Positions 6,534-60,104 of a stretch of 64,000 bases of DNA are shown here, one piece after another; position 1 is the first letter of the stretch; each line of letters opens with the position of its first letter. Below the pieces are notes generated by a model that made no database searches, was not told the DNA's origin, and saw nothing but the letters and a program-made list of their open reading frames with translations. The stretch comes from Escherichia coli (GTDB lineage Bacteria; Pseudomonadota; Gammaproteobacteria; Enterobacterales; Enterobacteriaceae). The stretch lies in the NCBI RefSeq assembly GCF_011045215.1, contig NZ_CP049201.1; one strand, 5' to 3'. The position numbers and the translations under genes are program-made.

Positions 6534-6626
6534 GGTGAGGTGGCCGAGAGGCTGAAGGCGCTCCCCTGCTAAGGGAGTATGCGGTCAAAAGCTGCATCCG
6601 GGGTTCGAATCCCCGCCTCACCGCCA
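6534..6626 (+). tRNA. serV: tRNA-Ser (anticodon GCU)
   Basis: GGTGAGGTGGCCGAGAGGCTGAAGG...GGTTCGAATCCCCGCCTCACCGCCA with long variable arm; matches E. coli serV from memory. Confidence 0.95.
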
Positions 6627-6629
6627 TTT

Positions 6630-6706
6630 GCATCCGTAGCTCAGCTGGATAGAGTACTCGGCTACGAACCGAGCGGTCGGAGGTTCGAATCCTCCCGGAT
6701 GCACCA
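6630..6706 (+). tRNA. argV: tRNA-Arg (anticodon ACG), copy 1
   Basis: GCATCCGTAGCTCAGCTGGATAGAGTACTCGGCTACGAACCGAGCGGTCGGAGGTTCGAATCCTCCCGGATGCACCA, 77 nt. Confidence 0.95.
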
Positions 6707-6905
6707 TATTCTCCGAAATCTTCAGCAATGAAGATATCGAAGAGGTAGCGGAATTAACCGCAGGCACCAGGAAGGATAACGTTGCTTTAGCAACGGCCCG
6801 AAGGGCGAGCCGCAAGGCGAGTAATCCTCCCGGATGCACCATCTCTTACTTGATACGGCTTTAGTAGCGGTATCAAAAAATCTGCAGTAAAGTAAGTTTC
6901 CCGAT

Positions 6906-6982
6906 GCATCCGTAGCTCAGCTGGATAGAGTACTCGGCTACGAACCGAGCGGTCGGAGGTTCGAATCCTCCCGGATGCACCA
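6906..6982 (+). tRNA. argY: tRNA-Arg (anticodon ACG), copy 2
   Basis: Identical 77-nt tRNA-Arg sequence; symbol assigned by order only. Confidence 0.93.
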
Positions 6983-7181
6983 TATTCTCCGAAATCTTCA
7001 GCAATGAAGATATCGAAGAGGTAGCGGAATTAACCGCAGGCACCAGGAAGGATAACGTTGCTTTAGCAACGGCCCGAAGGGCGAGCCGCAAGGCGAGTAA
7101 TCCTCCCGGATGCACCATCTCTTACTTGATACGGCTTTAGTAGCGGTATCAAAAAATCTGCAGTAAAGTAAGTTTCCCGAT

Positions 7182-7258
7182 GCATCCGTAGCTCAGCTGG
7201 ATAGAGTACTCGGCTACGAACCGAGCGGTCGGAGGTTCGAATCCTCCCGGATGCACCA
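7182..7258 (+). tRNA. argZ: tRNA-Arg (anticodon ACG), copy 3
   Basis: Identical 77-nt tRNA-Arg sequence; symbol assigned by order only. Confidence 0.93.
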
Positions 7259-7457
7259 TATTCTCCGAAATCTTCAGCAATGAAGATATCGAAGAGGTAG
7301 CGGAATTAACCGCAGGCACCAGGAAGGATAACGTTGCTTTAGCAACGGCCCGAAGGGCGAGCCGCAAGGCGAGTAATCCTCCCGGATGCACCATCTCTTA
7401 CTTGATACGGCTTTAGTAGCGGTATCAAAAAATCTGCAGTAAAGTAAGTTTCCCGAT

Positions 7458-7534
7458 GCATCCGTAGCTCAGCTGGATAGAGTACTCGGCTACGAACCGA
7501 GCGGTCGGAGGTTCGAATCCTCCCGGATGCACCA
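7458..7534 (+). tRNA. argQ: tRNA-Arg (anticodon ACG), copy 4
   Basis: Identical 77-nt tRNA-Arg sequence; symbol assigned by order only. Confidence 0.93.
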
Positions 7535-50303: not shown

Positions 50304-50352
50304 GTTGAGGCAGTATATTGAAACAATGAGAATGAATCACACATATAAGCTC

Positions 50353-51345
50353 TCACAATCTTCCGCCGTTTTTGACTGTTGCAGATATACTTTTAGCAGG
50401 TTTTAAATGCCTGGAGATTTCTTTCTGTTCTCGACGGATTTTGTATGAATTAATTTCTTCATAATCCTTGTGTTTATTTATTTTTGATAAATCAACCAAG
50501 AGATTATTTCTTATCATCCACTTTACAATTCGCTTGTTGATATCTTTATAGAGAGGGCCGCCTTTATATTTATAGAAGTGAATATCATGAATTTCACTGA
50601 TGAAATCAAGTATGGATAAGATTTCTTTATAATCACCAATGTAACTGTTAATGGTGAAATGGTCTTTATTAAGTTCTATTTTGAATCCATGTTCAGAAAG
50701 GTAATACAAGAAAAAGGCTGAGTCGAGATCACAAAAATCTACATGCAGCGTTCTTCTGTCAAATTTATCAATATGCGAGAGAATGATATCATGTAATTCA
50801 TAATCATATACATTTTCAATAAATCCTTTCCCTGAATGATCAATTTGATTGACATTGCATCCAGCATCTATTGCTACGGATAAAACTTCCGGGGAAAGGG
50901 GCATGAAGAGAATATTCATTCCTTTTTTATCGATGTGATTTATATCACAACCAGCATTAATTAATTCTGTCAATCCTTCAGCATTCCTGTAATGTTCAAA
51001 AATGCATGTGTAGCCATTAGTATCCGTATGCGAGGTGTCTAAACCCAGTTCAATCAGTTTCTTCAGTATTTCTGGATTTTTTTGATGAAAGAGCGCATTT
51101 TGCCCATGTCCGTTGATATGGTGTATATTAATTCCATAACTGAGCAGGCAATCCATGGCTTCCAGGGTTCTGCAGGCAAAAATGGCATTGTTGCCGTTAC
51201 TGTTAACAGCATTGATGTCATAGCCTATTTTTAAAGCTTTCTTTATATCATCAGGTGATCTTGCATTGAAGAATGATTCAGAAATGGCAAGGTCTAATGC
51301 CTTTTCTAATAATCCCTTTTGTAATAAGGATATGACTAATTCCAT
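50353..51345 (-). CDS. ankyrin-repeat protein with uncharacterised C-terminal domain
   Basis: ORF 50353..51357; about five degenerate ANK-like repeats (NSNGNNAIFAC..., NGHGQNALFH..., TNGYTCIFEH..., KKGMNILFMP..., HSGKGFIENV...); second ATG at 51345 has GGGGGTG RBS. Confidence 0.7.
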   Translation of the reverse strand: MELVISLLQKGLLEKALDLAISESFFNARSPDDIKKALKIGYDINAVNSNGNNAIFACRTLEAMDCLLSYGINIHHINGHGQNALFHQKNPEILKKLIELGLDTSHTDTNGYTCIFEHYRNAEGLTELINAGCDINHIDKKGMNILFMPLSPEVLSVAIDAGCNVNQIDHSGKGFIENVYDYELHDIILSHIDKFDRRTLHVDFCDLDSAFFLYYLSEHGFKIELNKDHFTINSYIGDYKEILSILDFISEIHDIHFYKYKGGPLYKDINKRIVKWMIRNNLLVDLSKINKHKDYEEINSYKIRREQKEISRHLKPAKSISATVKNGGRL

Positions 51346-51565
51346 AAACACCCCCATGAAAAAATGTTTAAGTCATTAGATATCAGAAATTCTGTGAAAT
51401 GCAACAGCTGGGGAAAGGTGTTCATGATGTGCGGAATAAAAATTTCCACAAACCACCCGTGGATACATCAGAAACACCTGCAGTAAATTTACGCCTGTAA
51501 CCTGCCGTCCGGACTATAGGACCAAACCTTCGCGGGAGATGCTACCATTACATCGGCAATGTTGA

Positions 51566-51958
<393 letters not shown>

Positions 51959-52102
51959 ATTTCTCAGTTCAACTTCCTTCTGGCTAGGTTAACTTGCAAG
52001 CAGGAAGTGCTTTTCATCGATTAGTGAATACGGTAGTTTTTTCAAACTAACTGAACTCTATTCGTATGACTTAAATCTTTAAGAAGGCAGGAGATTTGAA
52101 TT

Positions 52103-52957
52103 TTGAAAAACTGGTCACCAGAGCATACTAAAGAAATCAAAGCTTGGCTTGACATAGATAACTATCGCAAGCTCGAAGACATCAGTTTAAATGCCTTGTA
52201 TCACGAACTTTGGGCAAGAGCACTTCTGTACAAGCCTGGGCCTACTGACGAAGAAAAGAAAGGGCTATGGGTGTACATGACTGAAATTTTCAGTGGGAAC
52301 CCCCATCTTTTCAAAGGGAAGCATCTCGATTATCCAACAGTTAACGATACTCTCTACAGTCCTCCACACATTTTTATCACGGATATCACCAGGCTTGCTG
52401 AACTTAGTGTGATGGCTCTTAGTGTGAATCTTTTCACCTGGGAGGAAGGAAACGATGAATATTGTGTTAATGCGCCTCATCACGAAGCTTATGTGTCACA
52501 ACTCTTGTCCCCCTTATGTGAGAAAACGGTGTTGCTTGAAATCGATCTTGGTAGTGGTACTGACGATGAAATAGCCGAATCGATAAAAGCGGCCCTGCCA
52601 CAATGGAGATCGGTAAAAGGAGTGGAAGTTAATGAAACCGGTATCGTTCGTTTCGGCTATGGAACCATTAAAAAAATTATAAATTACAGGTTGGTTGCGA
52701 TGCTGGACATCTTACTTTGGGCAAAAAGGAAAGAACTAAGAATCTCAGATGATCGCCTCTCCCGGCTTCTTTATACTGATGAAGATGAAGAAACAACTAC
52801 CCGTTTAGGGTATCACATTAAAGACTCAGATCGTCCGCTTGCGATGAAAGCTGCAACGATAGACTTCATTAGGCAGTTCAATTTTTTCATGAACCGAAAT
52901 CCCCACCTGAAAAACATGAGAGTTTCAGATGTGATGAAACTCTCTGATTCTAACTGA
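52103..52957 (+). CDS. hypothetical island protein upstream of alpA
   Basis: 284-aa ORF, TTG start with GGAG RBS; no recognised domain. Confidence 0.55.
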   Translation: MKNWSPEHTKEIKAWLDIDNYRKLEDISLNALYHELWARALLYKPGPTDEEKKGLWVYMTEIFSGNPHLFKGKHLDYPTVNDTLYSPPHIFITDITRLAELSVMALSVNLFTWEEGNDEYCVNAPHHEAYVSQLLSPLCEKTVLLEIDLGSGTDDEIAESIKAALPQWRSVKGVEVNETGIVRFGYGTIKKIINYRLVAMLDILLWAKRKELRISDDRLSRLLYTDEDEETTTRLGYHIKDSDRPLAMKAATIDFIRQFNFFMNRNPHLKNMRVSDVMKLSDSN

Positions 52958-53079
52958 TCTCGAATTCCCGAAGTCTACTACTGCAGGGCAGACCGTAACC
53001 CTGCAGTTAGGAAGCTCGCTCCTTTCTTTTCCCAACTGTTCGTATAGTGATCCCATCACAACGACAAAGGGAAAACAAA

Positions 53080-53286
53080 ATGAACAATCAAAATACCCGC
53101 CTAATTCGCTTGCCAGAAGTTATGAACAGAACCGGCTATGGCAAGGCCTGGATTTATCGTCTAATCAACGAAGGTTTATTTCCACAACCAATAAAAATTG
53201 GTTCGCGTGCAATTGCATTTGTCGAAAGCGAAGTAGATGAATGGATCGCATCTGCAATTGAACGTTCACGTAAAAATGCAGCCTGA
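53080..53286 (+). CDS. alpA: AlpA-family prophage/island transcriptional regulator (excision control)
   Basis: ORF 53047..53286; from MNNQNTRLIRLPEVMNRTGYGKAWIYRLINEGLFPQPIKIGSRAIAFVESEVDEWI, close to the AlpA/MerR-like HTH family. Confidence 0.85.
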   Translation: MNNQNTRLIRLPEVMNRTGYGKAWIYRLINEGLFPQPIKIGSRAIAFVESEVDEWIASAIERSRKNAA

Positions 53287-53490
53287 TTACGGGGCTAATG
53301 ATGAGTGTATTAAATTTGGTGTGTAAAAATAAATGGTGCTATTCAACAATGAGCCGAGGGCCGCCTGATATTTTATAAGTAGTATTAGGTTAGGCTTTGG
53401 TATTAAGAAGTAATAACAATAGTCATTGGTGGAGATTATGATGGCATTTTTACCGTGACATTATAAATTAATAAGTACAGGAGATTTAAA

Positions 53491-53766
53491 ATGAATAATT
53501 CAATCAGAGTACCGGAAGATAAAGATTTTGTATGTGCATTTGTGACTTCACCGGATAGCTTGTATGAGGCTATTGAAACCTATCGTAATTATGTAGATCC
53601 AGTCGAAGAGATAGAGTTTGAGCACGTCCTTCTTTATTTGTTGTGTTCTATACTGGTCGAAGGTGCTACAGATGTTACCATTAATGATGAAGTACGAATG
53701 TGTATTGAGCACCTTGTCAATGAAAAAAATATTATCAGAAAGAATAATGCAGGTAAAAAGGTGTAA
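53491..53766 (+). CDS. hypothetical protein
   Basis: 91-aa ORF downstream of alpA; no recognised motif. Confidence 0.4.
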   Translation: MNNSIRVPEDKDFVCAFVTSPDSLYEAIETYRNYVDPVEEIEFEHVLLYLLCSILVEGATDVTINDEVRMCIEHLVNEKNIIRKNNAGKKV

Positions 53767-53939
53767 AGTCTGTAATAAATTATCATGGGTACAGACAGCA
53801 CAAGTCTGTACCTTCTTATTTTAATCCTACTGGTAATGATATATAAAAATTATGTGCTTTTGATAGCGGTCATGTGGTTTTGCTATAGTAAGCATTGCAG
53901 GATAGGAATATCCTAAACTTTCATTCTCTGCCCTTTGTT

Positions 53940-54245
53940 TTATTTAAGATAACTGAAAAATACAGGGTTTAAACGATACTGGTATTTGAACTCAGTAGGT
54001 ATAATAACATTCGTATCAATCAGTTCATCGATGGCCCGATAAAATCGGGCTGGCGTAATATGTATATCTTCCTGCTGTGCGATGGATGTTGCACGGTGAA
54101 AGTTCAGGTAAACAGTGTTTTTATCTGGTGTGTATGAAGCGATTAATGTGAGAAGCCAAAACACATAGTGAGCAGTATTGTTCAGATTGCGTTGTTCATC
54201 TGATAATTTATTCTGGTAAAGGTAAGCAGGGAGTCTTTGCTTCAT
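53940..54245 (-). CDS. hypothetical protein (possible winged-helix)
   Basis: 101-aa ORF directly downstream of the 187-aa HTH gene on the minus strand. Confidence 0.4.
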   Translation of the reverse strand: MKQRLPAYLYQNKLSDEQRNLNNTAHYVFWLLTLIASYTPDKNTVYLNFHRATSIAQQEDIHITPARFYRAIDELIDTNVIIPTEFKYQYRLNPVFFSYLK

Positions 54246-54314
54246 AAAGATATCCTTTGTTTTATTAAGTTTTTCGCTGGTGTGGGGCGTAAAATCACCG
54301 CGCTGTTATGTCTT

Positions 54315-54878
54315 TTAAAAGGGAATGCCGTCAGTTGGATATCTGTTTCTGGATTTTTTTACAGGCTTTGTTTTGCGCCCTGCGCGATAAAAGTTGAATG
54401 AAGTGGCAAAATCTTCAGTCTCAAGTCTGGATTTACTGAATTTATCCATCAGATCTTCATTGAAACGATGAGGAATACCTTTTACGCATAAATTAGAATT
54501 CAGGTAAACCTGACCGTCTTCAGCGTTACGGATCAGTATTTTCCTCTCAAATAATTCTCTGAATGCACGTGAAACATTCGATTTATTCAGTCCTAACTCT
54601 CTGGCAGTACGTGACTGTGAAAAGTCAGGGATAATATTTCCATAATCAATGACTGAGAAAAGATAAAGAACAATTCTGAATGCCGTTGGTGTCAGATCCA
54701 TTCGGGCGAGTGTGGCCGTATTATCTTTAAAGACCATCGAAAAATCGTCACGAAAGGATGTCTTTTTACAGGCACTTGCTTTAACTTTTATTTCTTCCAG
54801 ATCTTCGGGCATAACATCTAATGCTTCTGCAATGATTGCTTTTTGTTCTTTAGTTAACATAACACTTGTGTTTGACAT
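54315..54878 (-). CDS. HTH-domain protein, RepL-like replication/regulatory protein
   Basis: 187-aa ORF; HTH segment TARELGLNKSNVSRAFRELFERKILIR; basic C-terminus. Confidence 0.5.
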   Translation of the reverse strand: MSNTSVMLTKEQKAIIAEALDVMPEDLEEIKVKASACKKTSFRDDFSMVFKDNTATLARMDLTPTAFRIVLYLFSVIDYGNIIPDFSQSRTARELGLNKSNVSRAFRELFERKILIRNAEDGQVYLNSNLCVKGIPHRFNEDLMDKFSKSRLETEDFATSFNFYRAGRKTKPVKKSRNRYPTDGIPF

Positions 54879-55337
54879 AATGGCTCCTTTTTTATTATTG
54901 TGATAACAGATATGGCATATTAAATTTGTTTGTCAATATTATTAGTAATAAAAATTTTAAAATATTATATTTATTGCTCTGTGATTATTTTTTTAGTGAA
55001 ATATTAAGGGTTGTCAGAGTTATTACGAAGGGTGCTAAATTTCACCATCACCCGTTATGTCATTAATAATTTTTGGTTCTGAAAGATACAACCAATATTC
55101 TATCTTAACTTGTTGATGTAATTGATTAATTTTCTTTTTGTATTTGCAAGATAAAAGAGTGATAAAGAAACAAGAAACCGAAATTTAGCTTTAGACTGAC
55201 ACAAAATTCCATTGTACACAGTTTGATAAACACTGCTATTGCTGATTTTCCTTCGTAATATTATTCCTTAAGTGAAGCCTGCGCACCTGTATGTTGCGCC
55301 ACTGGGCTTCAGAACATTGCTATAGTGTTTAACTGTC

Positions 55338-55430
55338 AGTAGAAATACGCTTCGCGCAGGAGTTCAGACAGTTGGGTTTAGCTCTCAGCACAAATACGCT
55401 TCGCGCAGAGATTCAGACTGCTGAGTTTAG
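55338..55430. repeat. two tandem ~45-bp imperfect direct repeats (AGTAGAAATACGCTTCGCGCAGGAGTTCAGACAGTTGGGTTTAGC / AGCACAAATACGCTTCGCGCAGAGATTCAGACTGCTGAGTTTAGC)
   Basis: Read directly; followed at 55474..55668 by interleaved inverted repeats. Confidence 0.8.
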
Positions 55431-55872
55431 CGAAAGAGTGGACCCGACTACATGATTTACCCGTTAACTTAATACGGCTCACGCCGGAACCCCTTCGGAA
55501 AAATCCTTTCTGCTTCAGCGAGTGAGTGCTGTGGGCACTCAGCGGCGCTGCAAGAGGGATTAAACGTTGGGTTTTCATCTGACGGGTAAAAATAATCTAC
55601 ATATATCTGTCGTCGGGGGCGTGAGCCGGTGCGTAGCACTCTCTCAGAAAAATTCCTGAAGGGGTTTTATCTGAAATCTGGAAACTACCTGGCTTTTGAA
55701 AAAAGGAAGTGGTAATGCAATCGATCGGACTCAACATTGCAACAGCGTAAGCTGTTTCCAGTATTAAAAGAATAAATAGTTGTCATTTTAAAATAAAATA
55801 TTTTCAATTTTGTATTGATTTAAATTTTAAAGCTGATAGTACTTAATTATAAAAACAAAAAAGGAGAGGGTT

Positions 55873-56045
55873 ATGAGTAATATTTTTGTTTCTTCTCAGG
55901 AAGAAAAGTTTATATTTGTTGTTGATAAATATATAACACAGCATCGCGACAGTGTTAATAACAATATTTTTTACAGAAAACTTTATGTGCTTTTCGCTGG
56001 ATACCATCTGAAGTATTTTTATTCACGGGCGCAATATCGCAATTC
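55873..56045 (+). pseudogene. 5' fragment of a gene truncated by the IS21-family insertion
   Basis: Strong RBS AAGGAGAGGG plus ATG at 55873; reading frame runs into the IS terminal repeats. Confidence 0.45.
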
Positions 56046-56151
56046 GTGTTATTGCGTATTCCGCTCTATTCGATCACGGATTGGCATCGAAGTTCGATCA
56101 GCGATTCGCATCCATTCGATCAACCGGGAACTTAACTTTTTCTACCGCTTT

Positions 56152-56907
56152 TTAACTCGTTTTTTCGCTGCTTTCCACTGTCGGGGGATTTTTCCTCAGG
56201 GACTCTCCCTGAAGGACCACTCTGTGTGAGTTATGTACCAGTCTGTCCAGGATGGCATCTGCTGTTGTTGGGTTCTCCATCAGACCATGCCATTTATCTA
56301 CCGGGAACTGGCTTACCACTATCGTGCTGCTTTGTCCGTAACGATCCTCTGTGATCTCCAGAAGGTCATTACACTGGGCGTTACTTAACTGTTCCAGCCC
56401 CAGATCGTCCAGGATTAGAACCTGTATTTTTTGCAACTGTTTCAGATATTTCAGCCAACTGCCATCAACACGTCCCTGAGCCAACTGTTCCAGTAATCGC
56501 CCGGTTCTACAGTACCGGACGCTGTATTTCTGTCGACATGCCTGTTCGCCCAGCGCATTGGCTATCCAGCTCTTACCGCATCCTGTCGGACCGGTTATCA
56601 GTAGGTTTTTCCTGTGGATTATGTAGTGGCCGTTCAGCAGTTCCCTCATCTGTTCAGCCCGCAGACCTCTTGAGGCCGGATAACGCAGCCCTTCCGGTGT
56701 TGCCTGATATTTCAGGCAGGCATTTTTTCTCAACCGTGCCACACGACTGTTTTCTCTGCTCAGAAGCTCGTCATCAACCAGCAGTGTCAGCCTTTCCTCG
56801 AACGACAGTTCGTCGTAAGTCTGAGGCGTTTCCCGTTGCCGTATCAGGCTCCCGGCCATCGCCGGGAGTTTCAGTTGGGTCAGTTTGTTTAACAGATTAT
56901 CACTCAT
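56152..56907 (-). CDS. istB: IS21-family helper ATPase IstB
   Basis: ORF 56152..57150; Walker A LLITGPTGCGKSWIANALG; start taken at MSDNLLNKLTQLKLP. Confidence 0.85.
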   Translation of the reverse strand: MSDNLLNKLTQLKLPAMAGSLIRQRETPQTYDELSFEERLTLLVDDELLSRENSRVARLRKNACLKYQATPEGLRYPASRGLRAEQMRELLNGHYIIHRKNLLITGPTGCGKSWIANALGEQACRQKYSVRYCRTGRLLEQLAQGRVDGSWLKYLKQLQKIQVLILDDLGLEQLSNAQCNDLLEITEDRYGQSSTIVVSQFPVDKWHGLMENPTTADAILDRLVHNSHRVVLQGESLRKNPPTVESSEKTS

Positions 56908-56923
56908 ACGGTTGTTCCTTCTG

Positions 56924-58591
56924 TCAGTGGTAGTAGCCAGGACCACGCAGGTTTTCATGCTCTGAAGCATATGCCGGATGTTGTTCGCCCTGGCGGGATA
57001 ACGGAAGCTCAACGTTATCCCGATGATGACGCAGCAGATTGTCGATAAAGCGTCTGTCCGGGGCGTTATAGTGCAGGGCAACGTAACAGGCCTTTTCCAG
57101 CCGTTCCGGGCCGTATTTTTTCTGAAGTGCCAGCAGACCCAGGACTGCACGGTAAGCCAGCTCCGGATGGGGTTTGGCTTTCAGCATGGATTCAACCACC
57201 CGGCCTGTGGACGGACCTGTACGGTTTCCCTGCTCGATAAGGCGTTCCGGTGTCCATGTCCCATGCCGCCGGTGGCGTTCTGGCATGTGAAGCGGATTGG
57301 TTGTGTGTTTATATTCATGTGTGCTGCGCGGATGTTGCGCCACACACTGCCCCTTGTGCCAGAGCTGTACCACCGACTGCCCCACCTTCAGTGACAGACG
57401 CTGACCGACCAGTTCGTGTGGAACGGAGTACCAGTGACGGGCATATTCAACGTGGTAGTCAGGGCCAACCTTCACGGCTTTGTATTCCGTGTATTCATAA
57501 GGCTCCAGAGGCAGCGGAGAGAGTGCTGGTGCATCCAGCATGCGGAAGCGTTCTGCGCGGGTTTGATTACCGTATCCCTTCATTGGTCGGTTATTCATGT
57601 CCGTCAGCAACTCCCGAAGGCGTGCATTCAGCGCCCTGAGCGTGTGGAAGGTTTCATTACGGATGCGGGCAAGAAGCCATCGCTCGACGATGAGGACGCC
57701 GTTTTCTGCTTTTGGTTTATCTTTAGGTTTGCGCGGGCGGGCCGGGATAATAACCGTGCCATAGTGCTCAGCCAGCGCCTGATAACTGTCGTTGATGACA
57801 GGCTCATAGCGATCGGCTTTTTTCACTGCGCTTCTGAGGTTATCGGGGATGAGCAGCTTCGGTACGCCGCCCAGGAAGGTCAGGCAACGGCTGTGGGCAT
57901 TTAACCATGACATCATGTCCTGACCTTCGCACGCTTCAACATAGGTATAGTTGGACGCCCCCATTACAGCCACGAAGATTGCCACGCGGCGTATCTCTCC
58001 GGTGTCCGGATTAATAACAGGGACCGTAGGACCACAGAAGTCGATAAAGAGCTTTTCGCCAGCACGATGCTCCTGTCGCATGGAGAGGCGTCGCGTTTTT
58101 TTCCACTTCCGGTAGCAACGGCAGAAGTGTGAGTATCCCATCGCTTTGTCACCCGCCTGTGCCTTGTATTCCATCCACAACAGTTGGCGCGTCACGCCAG
58201 GTTTTCTCATTTCCGTATCGAAGTACAGCATGTCAGGCATAACAAGCTCTGACGCAGAGGTGTCTTTGGGCGGGAAAATGAGTTTCTCCAGCGTGTCATG
58301 GGATATATCAGCAGGTAATGGCCATGACAGAGAAGAGGCTTTGAAGCGGGCAAGAACCTCAAAAACGGTTGAGGCGCTGATGTGTAACGTCAGTCCGATA
58401 CAACGGTTAGTCAGCTTCTTATCGAACTTGAGCTGAAGGATCTTAAAACAAGTTTCCATAGTGCTCCTGGATTTTCTCTTTTTGGACATTGACGTCTCCA
58501 CTGGTTTAAACACGGCAATGGAGACTGTGGTGAAAAGAGTTAATTCCCGGAGTGACTGGCGAATTCCAATCAATGATCGGAAGTATGCCAA
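56924..58591 (-). CDS. istA: IS21-family transposase IstA
   Basis: 555-aa ORF with integrase core upstream of istB; true start probably an internal Met (MSKKRK... or METCFK...). Confidence 0.8.
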   Translation of the reverse strand: MAYFRSLIGIRQSLRELTLFTTVSIAVFKPVETSMSKKRKSRSTMETCFKILQLKFDKKLTNRCIGLTLHISASTVFEVLARFKASSLSWPLPADISHDTLEKLIFPPKDTSASELVMPDMLYFDTEMRKPGVTRQLLWMEYKAQAGDKAMGYSHFCRCYRKWKKTRRLSMRQEHRAGEKLFIDFCGPTVPVINPDTGEIRRVAIFVAVMGASNYTYVEACEGQDMMSWLNAHSRCLTFLGGVPKLLIPDNLRSAVKKADRYEPVINDSYQALAEHYGTVIIPARPRKPKDKPKAENGVLIVERWLLARIRNETFHTLRALNARLRELLTDMNNRPMKGYGNQTRAERFRMLDAPALSPLPLEPYEYTEYKAVKVGPDYHVEYARHWYSVPHELVGQRLSLKVGQSVVQLWHKGQCVAQHPRSTHEYKHTTNPLHMPERHRRHGTWTPERLIEQGNRTGPSTGRVVESMLKAKPHPELAYRAVLGLLALQKKYGPERLEKACYVALHYNAPDRRFIDNLLRHHRDNVELPLSRQGEQHPAYASEHENLRGPGYYH

Positions 58592-58614
58592 ATCGTGATC
58601 GATTGTGATGCCAA

Positions 58615-60104
58615 CATATCCTTACCCATAAATCCGAGTGATGTTATTCTGTTGATAAATTAACCATAATTTAGAGGAACTATGGAAAACTGGGTTATTA
58701 AGGAGCTGGAATCTCTGAATGTTGGTGATATCAGGCTCGAAAAGCGAATAAAGCACGTTCTCAGTGTGCTTAGCCGTTCACCAAAGGAAAGTATTCCCGT
58801 ATCCTGCCGTACCTGGAGTGAGACAAAAGCTGCTTATCGTTGCTTTTCCAGTGATAAAATTTCAGCCGATAAAATCATGGCTCCCCATAAGAAAAATATC
58901 ATCGAAAGGACTAAACAGTTTAAACGGGCTCTGGTTTTACAGGATACGACTGAACTAAATTATTCTGGTCAAAAAAAGAAACAGGGCGTCGGTCCCAGAC
59001 GACATGAAAATGAGCGAGATTTGTTTATTCACCCTCAATTGGTTATAAGTGATTCAGGTATTTGCTTAGGGGTTTATGATGATTATCAATGGTTCAGAAA
59101 AGAACTCAAAACTCAGAAACAAAGTCGTAAAGAAATAACTAATGATTCACTTCACAGGAAACATATCAGTGAGAAAGAAACAGGACGGTGGATAGAAGGA
59201 TATAAAAAAGCAACAGAACTGGCTAGGTCCTGTCCTGATACCCAGATAATTTCTGTTTCAGACCGTGAAGGTGATATTTACGACCTCTTTGAGAGTGCAG
59301 AAAATGAAAGTGGGATAAAGGCTGACTGGCTCGTAAGAATGAAGAGCATTAACCGGGCTATACTGAATTCATCAGGAAAAAGAGACTCATTACTCCTGAA
59401 TGAAAAAATGATGCAGATTTTGCCACAGCAGATAATTGAGTTTACCCTTCCGGAAGGACGAGGACAACCTTCCCGCAAAGTCCAGCAGGAGCTACGCTTA
59501 GCAAGGTTGACGCTACATCCACCCACCGGTCGAAGAGGAAAGTTACGTTGTTCTCCGGTAACGGTAACTGTATTACTTGCAAAGGAAATAAATGCTCCAG
59601 AAAGTGTCCAGCCATTAGTATGGTGGCTAATGAGTAGTGTACCTCCAGAAAAGCTGACGGAACCCGCACAGCTTATTCAATGGTATTTATTACGCTGGCA
59701 GATTGAAGTTTTCTTTAAGGTATTAAAAAGCGGATGTCAGGTTGAGAAATTACAACTTGAGACATTTGAACGCACAAGGAACTGTCTGGCCTTATACCTT
59801 ATAATCTCATGGAGAATACTTTATCTTAGCTCATTGTATAAAATGGTTCCGGAGGAACCCTGTGATTTAATTTTCGAAAAGAAAGAATATGAGTATCTCT
59901 GGATATTGGTAGAGAATACGCCTCCACCTGAAAACATACCGAATATAAGAACGGCGGTTTTAATGCTTGCAAGATTAGGAGGATATCTGGCAAGAAAAAA
60001 TGATTCGCCTCCAGGCCCTAAGACTATATGGTCAGGATTAACACAATTAATGCTGTCAATTAATGCCATAGAAATAGCCCAGAAAACTTGTGGGTAAGGG
60101 TATG
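58615..60104 (+). mobile_element. IS4-family (IS50/Tn5-like) insertion sequence, 1490 bp, flanked by 9-bp target duplication TGATGCCAA (58606..58614 and 60105..60113)
   Basis: Direct repeats read directly; imperfect terminal inverted repeats CATATCCTTACCCATAAATCC / CATACCCTTACCCACAAGTTT; 9-bp duplication is the size expected for IS50. Confidence 0.75.
58682..60097 (+). CDS. IS4-family DDE transposase (Tn5 Tnp-like)
   Basis: 471-aa ORF; YLLRWQIEVFFKVLKSGCQVEKLQLE parallels Tn5 YTHRWRIEEFHKAWKTGAGAERQRME; LMLARLGGYLARK parallels MAIARLGGFMDSK. Confidence 0.85.
   Translation: MENWVIKELESLNVGDIRLEKRIKHVLSVLSRSPKESIPVSCRTWSETKAAYRCFSSDKISADKIMAPHKKNIIERTKQFKRALVLQDTTELNYSGQKKKQGVGPRRHENERDLFIHPQLVISDSGICLGVYDDYQWFRKELKTQKQSRKEITNDSLHRKHISEKETGRWIEGYKKATELARSCPDTQIISVSDREGDIYDLFESAENESGIKADWLVRMKSINRAILNSSGKRDSLLLNEKMMQILPQQIIEFTLPEGRGQPSRKVQQELRLARLTLHPPTGRRGKLRCSPVTVTVLLAKEINAPESVQPLVWWLMSSVPPEKLTEPAQLIQWYLLRWQIEVFFKVLKSGCQVEKLQLETFERTRNCLALYLIISWRILYLSSLYKMVPEEPCDLIFEKKEYEYLWILVENTPPPENIPNIRTAVLMLARLGGYLARKNDSPPGPKTIWSGLTQLMLSINAIEIAQKTCG

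Follow-up and report, generated by a model that had tools for sequence, protein, structure and literature searches.

The probable excision-control and replication segment and its island

The stretch of DNA analysed here (the window) comprises 64,000 nucleotides of the Escherichia coli contig NZ_CP049201.1 (assembly GCF_011045215.1), and the segment in question lies at positions 52103-54878. Five open reading frames (ORFs) are found in it, and all agree with the NCBI PGAP/RefSeq gene calls in near-identical E. coli genomes. The genes for a DUF6387 protein, for the small regulator AlpA and for an acidic protein (hyp91) form a unit that is read in one direction, with a terminator-like stem-loop at its end. 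The gene for a RepL-like protein of 187 residues and that for a small basic protein (hyp101) are divergent from this unit, and the RepL-like gene faces a conserved noncoding region of 1 kb. An operon with a relaxase gene follows 6-8 kb beyond the segment. The original prediction had described a TTG-initiated protein of 284 residues upstream of a co-oriented alpA, small ORFs and a divergent helix-turn-helix (HTH) protein; all of these are present, in agreement with PGAP, and no match to unrelated housekeeping families was found. The segment likely serves for excision control and replication, as the core of an integrative mobilizable element (IME) whose insertion site is the tmRNA gene ssrA. As judged from its genes, the island can probably excise, replicate and be carried along by conjugative plasmids.

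The island spans from 47594 to past the right end of the window, with the integrase gene and ssrA outside it. In clean strains, which are free of insertion sequence (IS) damage, the interval between ssrA and ypjA is one island. Read from ssrA, it begins with a P4-type tyrosine integrase (Pfam domains Arm-DNA-bind_3, Phage_int_M and Phage_integrase), a large serine recombinase, two ParB-like proteins, a type I restriction-modification system and ankyrin-repeat proteins. It continues with a NikA-like protein, a MobA/VirD2 relaxase, three small proteins, the backbone protein hyp142, the 187-residue protein, hyp101, hyp91, AlpA and DUF6387, and closes with IS fragments, an ankyrin protein and a SIR2 protein before ypjA is reached. 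The window is colinear with a clean strain (L003) except for 56053-60189.

An IME is expected to bring a site-specific integrase with attachment (att) repeats, and in the clean strains the P4-type integrase lies beside ssrA and the attR core copies the ssrA 3' end. It should further encode a relaxase of its own and lack a conjugative type IV secretion system. Both the relaxase gene and the NikA-like gene lie in the window, where the original prediction had overlooked them, and no type IV secretion gene occurs in the full-island annotation of the clean strains. The relaxase matches Pfam Relaxase (PF03432) with an E value of 1.4e-22 and no other relaxase family, and in its N-terminal nuclease domain the identity to relaxases of small mobilizable plasmids of the MobC type amounts to 42-49%; the NikA-like assignment has an E value of 8e-4. 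The DNA upstream of the NikA-like gene had no match among plasmids, and no helper-like origin of transfer (oriT) could be proposed. Neither the window nor the whole annotated island contains primase, helicase, terminase, capsid-related, capsid-redirecting or cos-type functions; the original prediction had noted the lack of primase and helicase for the window, and this extends to the complete island of clean strains. Against PHROGs the backbone proteins matched integrase, excisionase and unknown-function families, with no structural, packaging or primase match. Since a relaxase and a NikA-like protein are present and phage functions are absent, the island is assigned to the IMEs and not to the phage-inducible chromosomal islands (PICIs) or P4-like satellites.

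The attR core was found by comparing island-chromosome junctions across hosts. An ungapped search of the window for another stretch like the 3' end of ssrA gave nothing useful; short deletions distinguish the attR core from ssrA. The match to the Kluyvera (99.8%) and Phytobacter island copies begins at 47593, and E. coli strains with other islands at the same site match up to 47611 and 47690. A palindrome some 70 bp into the island from attR is near-invariant in five islands of four genera, with a single-base change in the left arm in one of them, and persists in the islands of O157:H7 and Res13, which use the same site but are otherwise unrelated. Similar GGGTCC/GGGACC motifs adjoin ssrA at attL. 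This palindrome is a candidate arm-type or accessory binding site.

The segment is 99.6-100% identical to copies in other strains, with 99.7-100% over 51900-55300 in the E. coli genomes that supplied the PGAP gene calls, and the 3.4-kb module is found at a coverage of at least 80% in 39 of 5,426 complete E. coli genomes. A backbone of about 8 kb, in the order DUF6387, AlpA, hyp91, RepL-like gene, 1-kb noncoding region, hyp142, three small genes, relaxase and NikA-like gene, also occurs in Salmonella, Kluyvera, Superficieibacter, Pseudocitrobacter and Phytobacter, at different attachment sites and beside different integrases. The Salmonella locus (L061), for instance, has an identical gene order with another integrase and adjoins clpA. 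A contig of Kluyvera cryocrescens is 99.8% identical over 5.2 kb (window 47593-52790 versus 5489-10688 of L010), beginning exactly at attR, which indicates a very recent transfer of the island between genera.

The present copy is damaged, which weighs against its being a working element: IS remnants lie beside DUF6387, and a 4.1-kb composite insertion of IS21-like and IS4-like elements, with 5 bp common to both junctions, sits in a backbone gene. Because of this damage the mobility of this copy may already be impaired. That the module in this genome is an inert remnant, inactivated by insertion sequences and with its ORFs intact because the damage is recent, is a serious possibility, though one of less than even probability. 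It would account for the IS3 and IstB fragments that abut the upstream region of DUF6387, for the splitting of hyp142, and for an extra deletion in the attR core relative to the Kluyvera and Res13 copies. Against it, none of the genes for DUF6387, AlpA, hyp91, hyp101, the RepL-like protein and the relaxase is truncated, other strains have nearly identical copies of the segment, and the Kluyvera copy speaks for recent transfer. Moreover, this explanation concerns the present activity of the module and not its identity. In strain E24377A, an IS21-like element is found elsewhere in the same island.

Table 1. Island features in the window (positions are those of the window; strand is left empty where none applies)
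Feature	Coordinates	Strand	Basis or remark
attR core	47594..47608	-	Reads GGGACGCCAGCACCA; gapped copy of the ssrA 3' end CGCCAGCTCCACCA
Palindrome GGTTCC-N5-GGAACC	47669..47685		Binding inferred
Cargo between attR and module	48112..51345	-	SIR2-family protein 48112-49464; ankyrin-repeat protein 50353-51345
IS remnants	51520..51862		IstB-like ATP-binding pseudogene and fragment of an IS3 transposase, close upstream of the DUF6387 promoter region; PGAP calls transferred from related genomes
DUF6387 protein, 284 residues, TTG start, isoelectric point (pI) 5.6	52103..52957	+	Pfam PF19924
GC-rich hairpin CTGCAGGG-N10-CCCTGCAG	52981..53006	+	Immediately after the DUF6387 stop codon; read from sequence
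alpA leader	53027..53079	+	Pyrimidine tract TTTTCCC, complementary to the Shine-Dalgarno (SD) sequence, 53027-53033; -10-like TATAGT 53043-53048; SD GGGAAAA 53069-53075
alpA, AlpA-family winged-helix protein, 68 residues, pI 9.8	53080..53286	+	Pfam PF05930 Phage_AlpA
hyp91, acidic, 91 residues, last gene of the rightward unit	53491..53766	+	ORF and PGAP coding sequence
Terminator-like stem-loop between convergent hyp91 and hyp101	53787..53813		10-bp stem, T-rich tail
hyp101, small basic protein downstream of the RepL-like gene	53940..54245	-	Weak match to F-93 winged-helix domain, E 0.065
RepL-like winged-helix protein, 187 residues, C-terminus ...TDGIPF	54315..54878	-	Presumed replication initiator of the excised island
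Conserved noncoding region, 994 bp	54879..55872		Between RepL-like gene and hyp142; no credible ORF
Palindrome in noncoding region	55031-55054		Two islands show a compensatory change; located some 150 bp before the RepL-like start codon
Hairpin in noncoding region	55277-55313		
17-mer AAATACGCTTCGCGCAG, two copies here	Within 49-nt tandem repeat 55327-55424		1-3 copies across islands
Invariant block of about 100 nt	55445-55560		Alignment of six islands
hyp142, conserved backbone gene, split by IS insertion 56053-60189	55873..60435	+	Colinearity with clean strain
Mobilization operon	61821..63451	-	NikA-like accessory protein 63047-63451; MobA/VirD2-type relaxase 61821-63050

The RepL-like protein and the conserved noncoding region

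The 187-residue protein is probably a RepL-family replication initiator that also regulates its own expression, as suggested by its relatives. The Pfam RepL (PF05732) cut-off of 20.3 is passed both by a 65%-identical island homologue, with a score of 24.4, and by a homologue on a 2,924-bp plasmid, with 33.2; the latter is 39% identical to the 187-residue protein over 124 residues (E 3e-32). The relation to RepL that the original prediction had seen is thus borne out through these relatives. Island homologues are 63-88% identical, some of them with precomputed HTH_36 and RepL domains. In a plasmid collection the protein matches 61 records, the majority being circular, non-mobilizable plasmids of 2.5-2.9 kb (44-47% identity) found in Klebsiella, Enterobacter, Escherichia and Citrobacter, and on these small circles the homologue is the only large gene. 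A plasmid of 2,675 bp has the homologue as its only annotated gene and only large ORF, preceded by iterons in an array of four 22-bp repeats. No RNAI or ColE1-type RNA was found on that plasmid, and Rfam gave no relevant family on the small plasmids, from which it follows that they supply an initiator of their own. The corresponding slot of a Citrobacter island is occupied by a PF03090 Replicase, in which PriCT_1 matched weakly and below threshold. A structural model of the 187-residue protein has a winged-helix fold resembling the N-terminal domain of DnaD and a plasmid initiator.

Several findings weigh against the assignment to RepL initiators. The 187-residue protein itself stays below the Pfam RepL threshold, and RepL is not listed for it at E <= 0.1. 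In Pfam it matched Cro (E 2.9e-5) and HTH_36 best, both below the cut-off, and further sub-threshold matches are Rep3_N and the phage O N-terminal domain. The structural model is weak, with a predicted local distance difference test (pLDDT) score of 60. Furthermore, neither iterons nor a DnaA box were found beside the RepL-like gene, where the only repeat is the 17-mer in its 1-3 copies.

In an alternative explanation the protein is not an initiator but the island's master repressor, similar to MarR or Cro, and its divergence from the alpA operon would be that of a cI/cro switch. The Cro and HTH_36 matches, the RefSeq name (MarR/HTH) and the conserved palindrome with its compensatory change upstream of the start codon all agree with this explanation. 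It is nevertheless unlikely, since homologues are the only large gene on autonomously replicating small circular plasmids, relatives exceed the RepL cut-off, and the slot in a sister island holds a primase-type Replicase. In addition, initiators commonly repress their own genes, and the roles of initiator and repressor are compatible. A feature of the C-terminus offers a lead in favour of the initiator function: the RepL-like proteins of islands often end in D(D/G)IPF, and their small-plasmid relatives mostly in PF or LF. The C-terminal tip of the single-stranded DNA-binding protein (SSB) recruits replisome proteins, and D(D/G)IPF resembles that tip. In the window this C-terminus is encoded at 54315-54335.

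The noncoding region in front of the RepL-like gene shows 77% column identity across six islands and contains blocks that are invariant where the flanking proteins are just 68-70% identical. It occurs only in loci with the RepL-like gene. The simplest reading is that it is a replication origin, a candidate oriV. Rfam gave no relevant family on the island, and no Rfam family and no plasmid DNA matched the region, which shares no detectable sequence with the RepL-type small plasmids. A point against an oriV is that the region could equally be an oriT or a regulatory RNA.

DUF6387, the alpA leader and the remaining genes

DUF6387 was identified over its full length: the Pfam match covers positions 2-258 of 258 with 209.3 bits against a cut-off of 28.9 (E 9.7e-62). 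Its TTG start is credible, because AGGAG lies 9 nt upstream, the N-terminus MKNWS is kept in 30 homologues, and TTG is used in related loci (TTG in 8 and ATG in 34 of 43). AlpA, as the original prediction had called it, matches the full 51-position Phage_AlpA profile with 72.1 bits against a cut-off of 21 (E 3.5e-20). According to PGAP its gene starts at ATG 53080 and not at GTG 53047 of the ORF list. The PHROG to which it belongs is named "excisionase and transcriptional regulator", and by analogy AlpA is presumed to be a recombination directionality factor (RDF) as well as a regulator.

The context of DUF6387 was surveyed in 45 loci from species-representative genomes. AlpA lies directly downstream on the same strand in 29 of the 45, five more have an insertion between the two, and the remainder are mostly truncated contigs. 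A P4-type integrase is found directly upstream on the same strand in about 13 of these loci, and a relaxase backbone downstream in about 15. The spacer between DUF6387 and alpA usually measures 80-125 nt and is 122 nt here, behind a DUF6387 gene of 855 bp. The position before alpA is kept in IMEs, ROD21-like islands, islands with a recombinase trio and phage-like elements, while the rest varies. A profile search of 1.84 billion representative proteins gave 449 DUF6387 clusters, nearly all of single-domain proteins of 250-340 residues, and nine distant members matched DUF6387 only in Pfam, with no informative fusion. The contexts of seven distant members tell the same: four have integrase, DUF6387 and AlpA in one orientation, with 0-2 small ORFs after the integrase, and two more keep AlpA, one separated by an IS and one with the integrase cut off by the contig end. 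Tandem duplicates were observed in distant cassettes, of DUF6387 in L063 (2015-4131) and of AlpA in L062 (6131-6561). Throughout Enterobacterales and in more distant relatives, DUF6387 is nearly always found right before an AlpA-family gene and next to a P4-type integrase, and it is a fixed third member of the integrase-alpA cassette.

The slot after this cassette is variable and holds the IME backbone, the PF03090 replicase of Citrobacter, a recombinase trio, S24 repressors (L057) or a DUF927 protein (L064). In O157:H7 and many other islands, AlpA is followed by two tyrosine recombinases and a 543-residue DNA-binding protein in the place of the RepL-like gene. Examples of this trio are seen in L004 (10049-14197), L018 (11492-15640), L032 and L011.

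Phages and plasmids hardly carry DUF6387. Among 50,697 phage records a single match was obtained, which is a misfiled Salmonella chromosome contig, and just 4 of 72,556 plasmid records matched; PHROGs includes a DUF6387-like family. Two PLSDB entries of about 3.6 kb, OX345049.1 (L055) and OX345050.1, are listed as plasmids with the module and contain the island genes for DUF6387, AlpA and the RepL-like protein and a relaxase gene. They are linear contigs of a Salmonella draft assembly and were therefore discarded as plasmid evidence.

The best guess for DUF6387, made by analogy, is that it controls the timing of alpA expression or AlpA activity; it might be a sensor or regulator, for instance, whose N-terminal half is variable and whose C-terminal half is conserved. 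The guess is based on its position and on PIME1, where helper-induced excision requires a second regulator besides alpA (bioRxiv 10.64898/2026.01.12.698999). The N-terminal half diverges faster, with a mean pairwise identity of 0.48 against 0.66 for the C-terminal half. The more specific proposal, that DUF6387 is an excision switch which senses, for example, a helper plasmid or phage through its N-terminal half and acts together with the conserved alpA leader, is tentative and would have to be called doubtful. Two results speak against a regulatory role. No relative of DUF6387 was detected in the PDB by profile search of the sequences or by fold, so that it is without detectable homology to any regulator there. 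Its co-variation with AlpA or the integrase is only moderate (Spearman 0.37-0.54), which is too weak to argue for a physical interaction with either.

DUF6387 might instead be a passenger at the island end, for example a defence or exclusion gene, functionally unconnected with AlpA. Cargo accumulates at island ends, SIR2 and ankyrin genes lie right beside DUF6387 here, and no DNA-binding domain is recognisable in the protein, which is acidic. The explanation is nonetheless improbable, given the place directly upstream of alpA at a nearly constant spacing in most loci, across varied element types, and the lack of a PADLOC match for DUF6387.

The GC-rich hairpin behind the DUF6387 stop codon has counterparts of differing sequence at the same position in other loci. 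Among 22 divergent alpA leaders, the sole invariant columns are T-A-N3-T and the TG of the ATG start codon. The T-A-N3-T box, some 35 nt ahead of the alpA start codon, bears the signature of a -10 hexamer. Nearly all leaders have a pyrimidine tract, located at this box or shortly before it, that pairs with the SD sequence and often also with the ATG, and the resulting hairpin recurs with different arm sequences across about 30 leaders. On average the SD sequence is paired with a probability of 0.74 in the 30 unique leaders, compared with 0.53 in 53 control genes. RNAalifold on a MAFFT alignment of the leaders predicted no pairs, because the arms were misaligned by indels, and a swap test was used instead. 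Cognate arms paired with -13.1 kcal/mol and unrelated arms with -9.0 kcal/mol, and 17% of the swaps paired as well as the cognate arms; this alignment-free test gives moderate support to the leader hairpin. Translation of alpA may thus depend on the promoter used. Read-through transcripts from DUF6387 would carry the occluding arm and hide the SD sequence of alpA, while transcripts begun at the TAnnnT box, downstream of the complementary arm, would be free of it and translatable.

Downstream of alpA, hyp91 is conserved also in L009, L051, L040, L049 and L061, and no family was matched by it in Pfam and PHROGs searches. hyp101 may contain a winged helix, to judge from its sequence; it is present in L009 and L051 and absent in L024 and L061. 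Of the cargo, the SIR2-family protein matches Pfam SIR2_2 (E 2.9e-24) and the PADLOC candidate defence family PDC-S25 (E 4e-77), with ThsA-like matches. The ankyrin-repeat protein (Pfam Ank_2) is one of several scattered in the island. The O157:H7 and Res13 islands are without this SIR2 and ankyrin cargo, and DUF6387 lies there about 260-450 bp from attR and ypjA. The E24377A copy of the island carries Kiwa besides type I restriction-modification. Ordinary landmarks of the core genome that place the window are an array of tRNA-Ser and four tRNA-Arg genes at 6534-7534 and, at 39588-39663, a tRNA gene with a CAT anticodon that is tRNA-Ile in RefSeq and presumably ileY.

Proposed life cycle and relation to known elements

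In the proposed life cycle, AlpA as RDF would excise the island together with the integrase, and the RepL-like initiator would fire the origin in the adjacent noncoding region, so that the excised circle is not lost. The relaxase and its NikA-like partner would then nick an oriT, and a co-resident conjugative plasmid would transfer the island. The integrase lies at the end opposite to DUF6387 in such islands, and circularisation would make the two neighbours across attP.

The island is an ordinary representative of an already known class of elements, and the role of DUF6387 beside AlpA is the main new question; the alpA leader and the conserved 1-kb region come second. Islands of this type move anti-phage systems between genera, here SIR2 and in sister copies Kiwa and type I restriction-modification. 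A self-replicating IME that is mobilized by plasmids, rather than a phage satellite, also changes which helper is to be sought. In hundreds of island lineages, among them ROD21 of Salmonella and ICEKp258.2 of the epidemic Klebsiella ST258, the excision factor has DUF6387 as its companion. The fixed position of DUF6387 between integrase and alpA, the half-by-half conservation, the absence from phages and plasmids and the conserved alpA leader make it directly testable.

The original prediction had taken the segment for the regulatory or replication core of a mobile island, which stands, and had likened it to satellites and PICI-type islands, which does not. That the module belongs to a phage satellite of the PICI or P4-like kind, induced by a helper phage and packaged into capsids, is very improbable and for this island largely refuted: the order of integrase, alpA and rep-like gene is also the layout of Gram-negative PICIs and P4, the cassette of L064 is followed by a 940-residue protein with a DUF927 domain (which we take to be associated with primases and helicases), that of L057 lies beside S24-family repressors and an ORF6N protein, and a DUF6387-like family exists in PHROGs, but the island has mobilization genes, none of the phage functions sought in the window and the full island, and a DUF6387 whose one phage record is misfiled. 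Since the cassette is modular, as the DUF927 protein illustrates, the likeness to satellites is real for the cassette and not for the island. Gram-negative PICIs and P4-like elements share with the IME described here a front end of integrase and AlpA/Vis-family regulator and a modular replication slot; they differ in that this island has a relaxase in place of primase-helicase, capsid-size redirection and packaging genes.

The small plasmids of the RepL type (PF05732) have a single replication protein to which the 187-residue protein is 39-47% identical, with a winged-helix core in common. They are autonomous and have short iterons upstream of rep, whereas here the gene sits in an integrated island. 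The cryptic prophage CP4-57 of E. coli K-12, the source of the original AlpA, reportedly occupies the same site between ssrA and ypjA, and its small AlpA-family regulator is said to trigger integrase-dependent excision (Kirby, Trempy and Gottesman, 1994). It is a defective prophage and not an IME, with a gene content that reportedly differs.

The closest relatives of the island are the ROD21-like islands by module and the PIMEs and Salmonella genomic island 1 (SGI1) by the logic of the life cycle. It shares with PIMEs and SGI1 a functional logic in which integrase and alpA are combined with another regulator, a replicase of plasmid type beside its origin, genes for mobilization and a large defence cargo. 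IMEs with int, alpA and repA were found to excise, replicate and be mobilized, with alpA essential; in PIME1 this was shown for excision by deletion of alpA (bioRxiv 10.64898/2026.01.12.698999). Excision, replication and mobilization are thus experimental for PIME1, while this island is known from its DNA. PIMEs are defined by repA/repC, trbJ and trbL, and PIME1 by a divergent regulator of the LuxR family, none of which is in the clean-strain annotation here. In the island described here, the partner of alpA is a tandem DUF6387 and the replicase is RepL-like.

The ROD21-like islands, also named Enterobacteriaceae-associated ROD21-like (EARL) islands, have a P4-type integrase at one end and, reading inward from the other, an AlpA-family RDF gene preceded by a DUF6387 gene of about 843 bp. 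They are mobilizable, encode a relaxase without a type IV secretion system and carry defence or virulence cargo (PMC6035254, PMC8844411, PMC10763509). A gene of 843 bp and unknown function beside the RDF gene was noted in most of them in 2018 (PMC6035254), and ICEKp258.2 ends with AlpA and then DUF6387 (PMC10763509). SEN1998, the AlpA-family RDF of ROD21, binds both att regions in electrophoretic mobility shift assays (PMC8844411). The island described here has the RDF gene with the companion gene as well, the latter slightly longer at 855 bp. EARL islands differ in being located at Asn-tRNA genes with a 25-bp repeat, whereas this island lies between ssrA and ypjA with an att core derived from ssrA. 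They also have a MobA/MobL (MOBQ) relaxase, TraD, type IV pilin genes and often an H-NS homologue, while this island has a PF03432 relaxase, a NikA-like partner and a RepL-like gene, and its annotation is without TraD and pilin genes.

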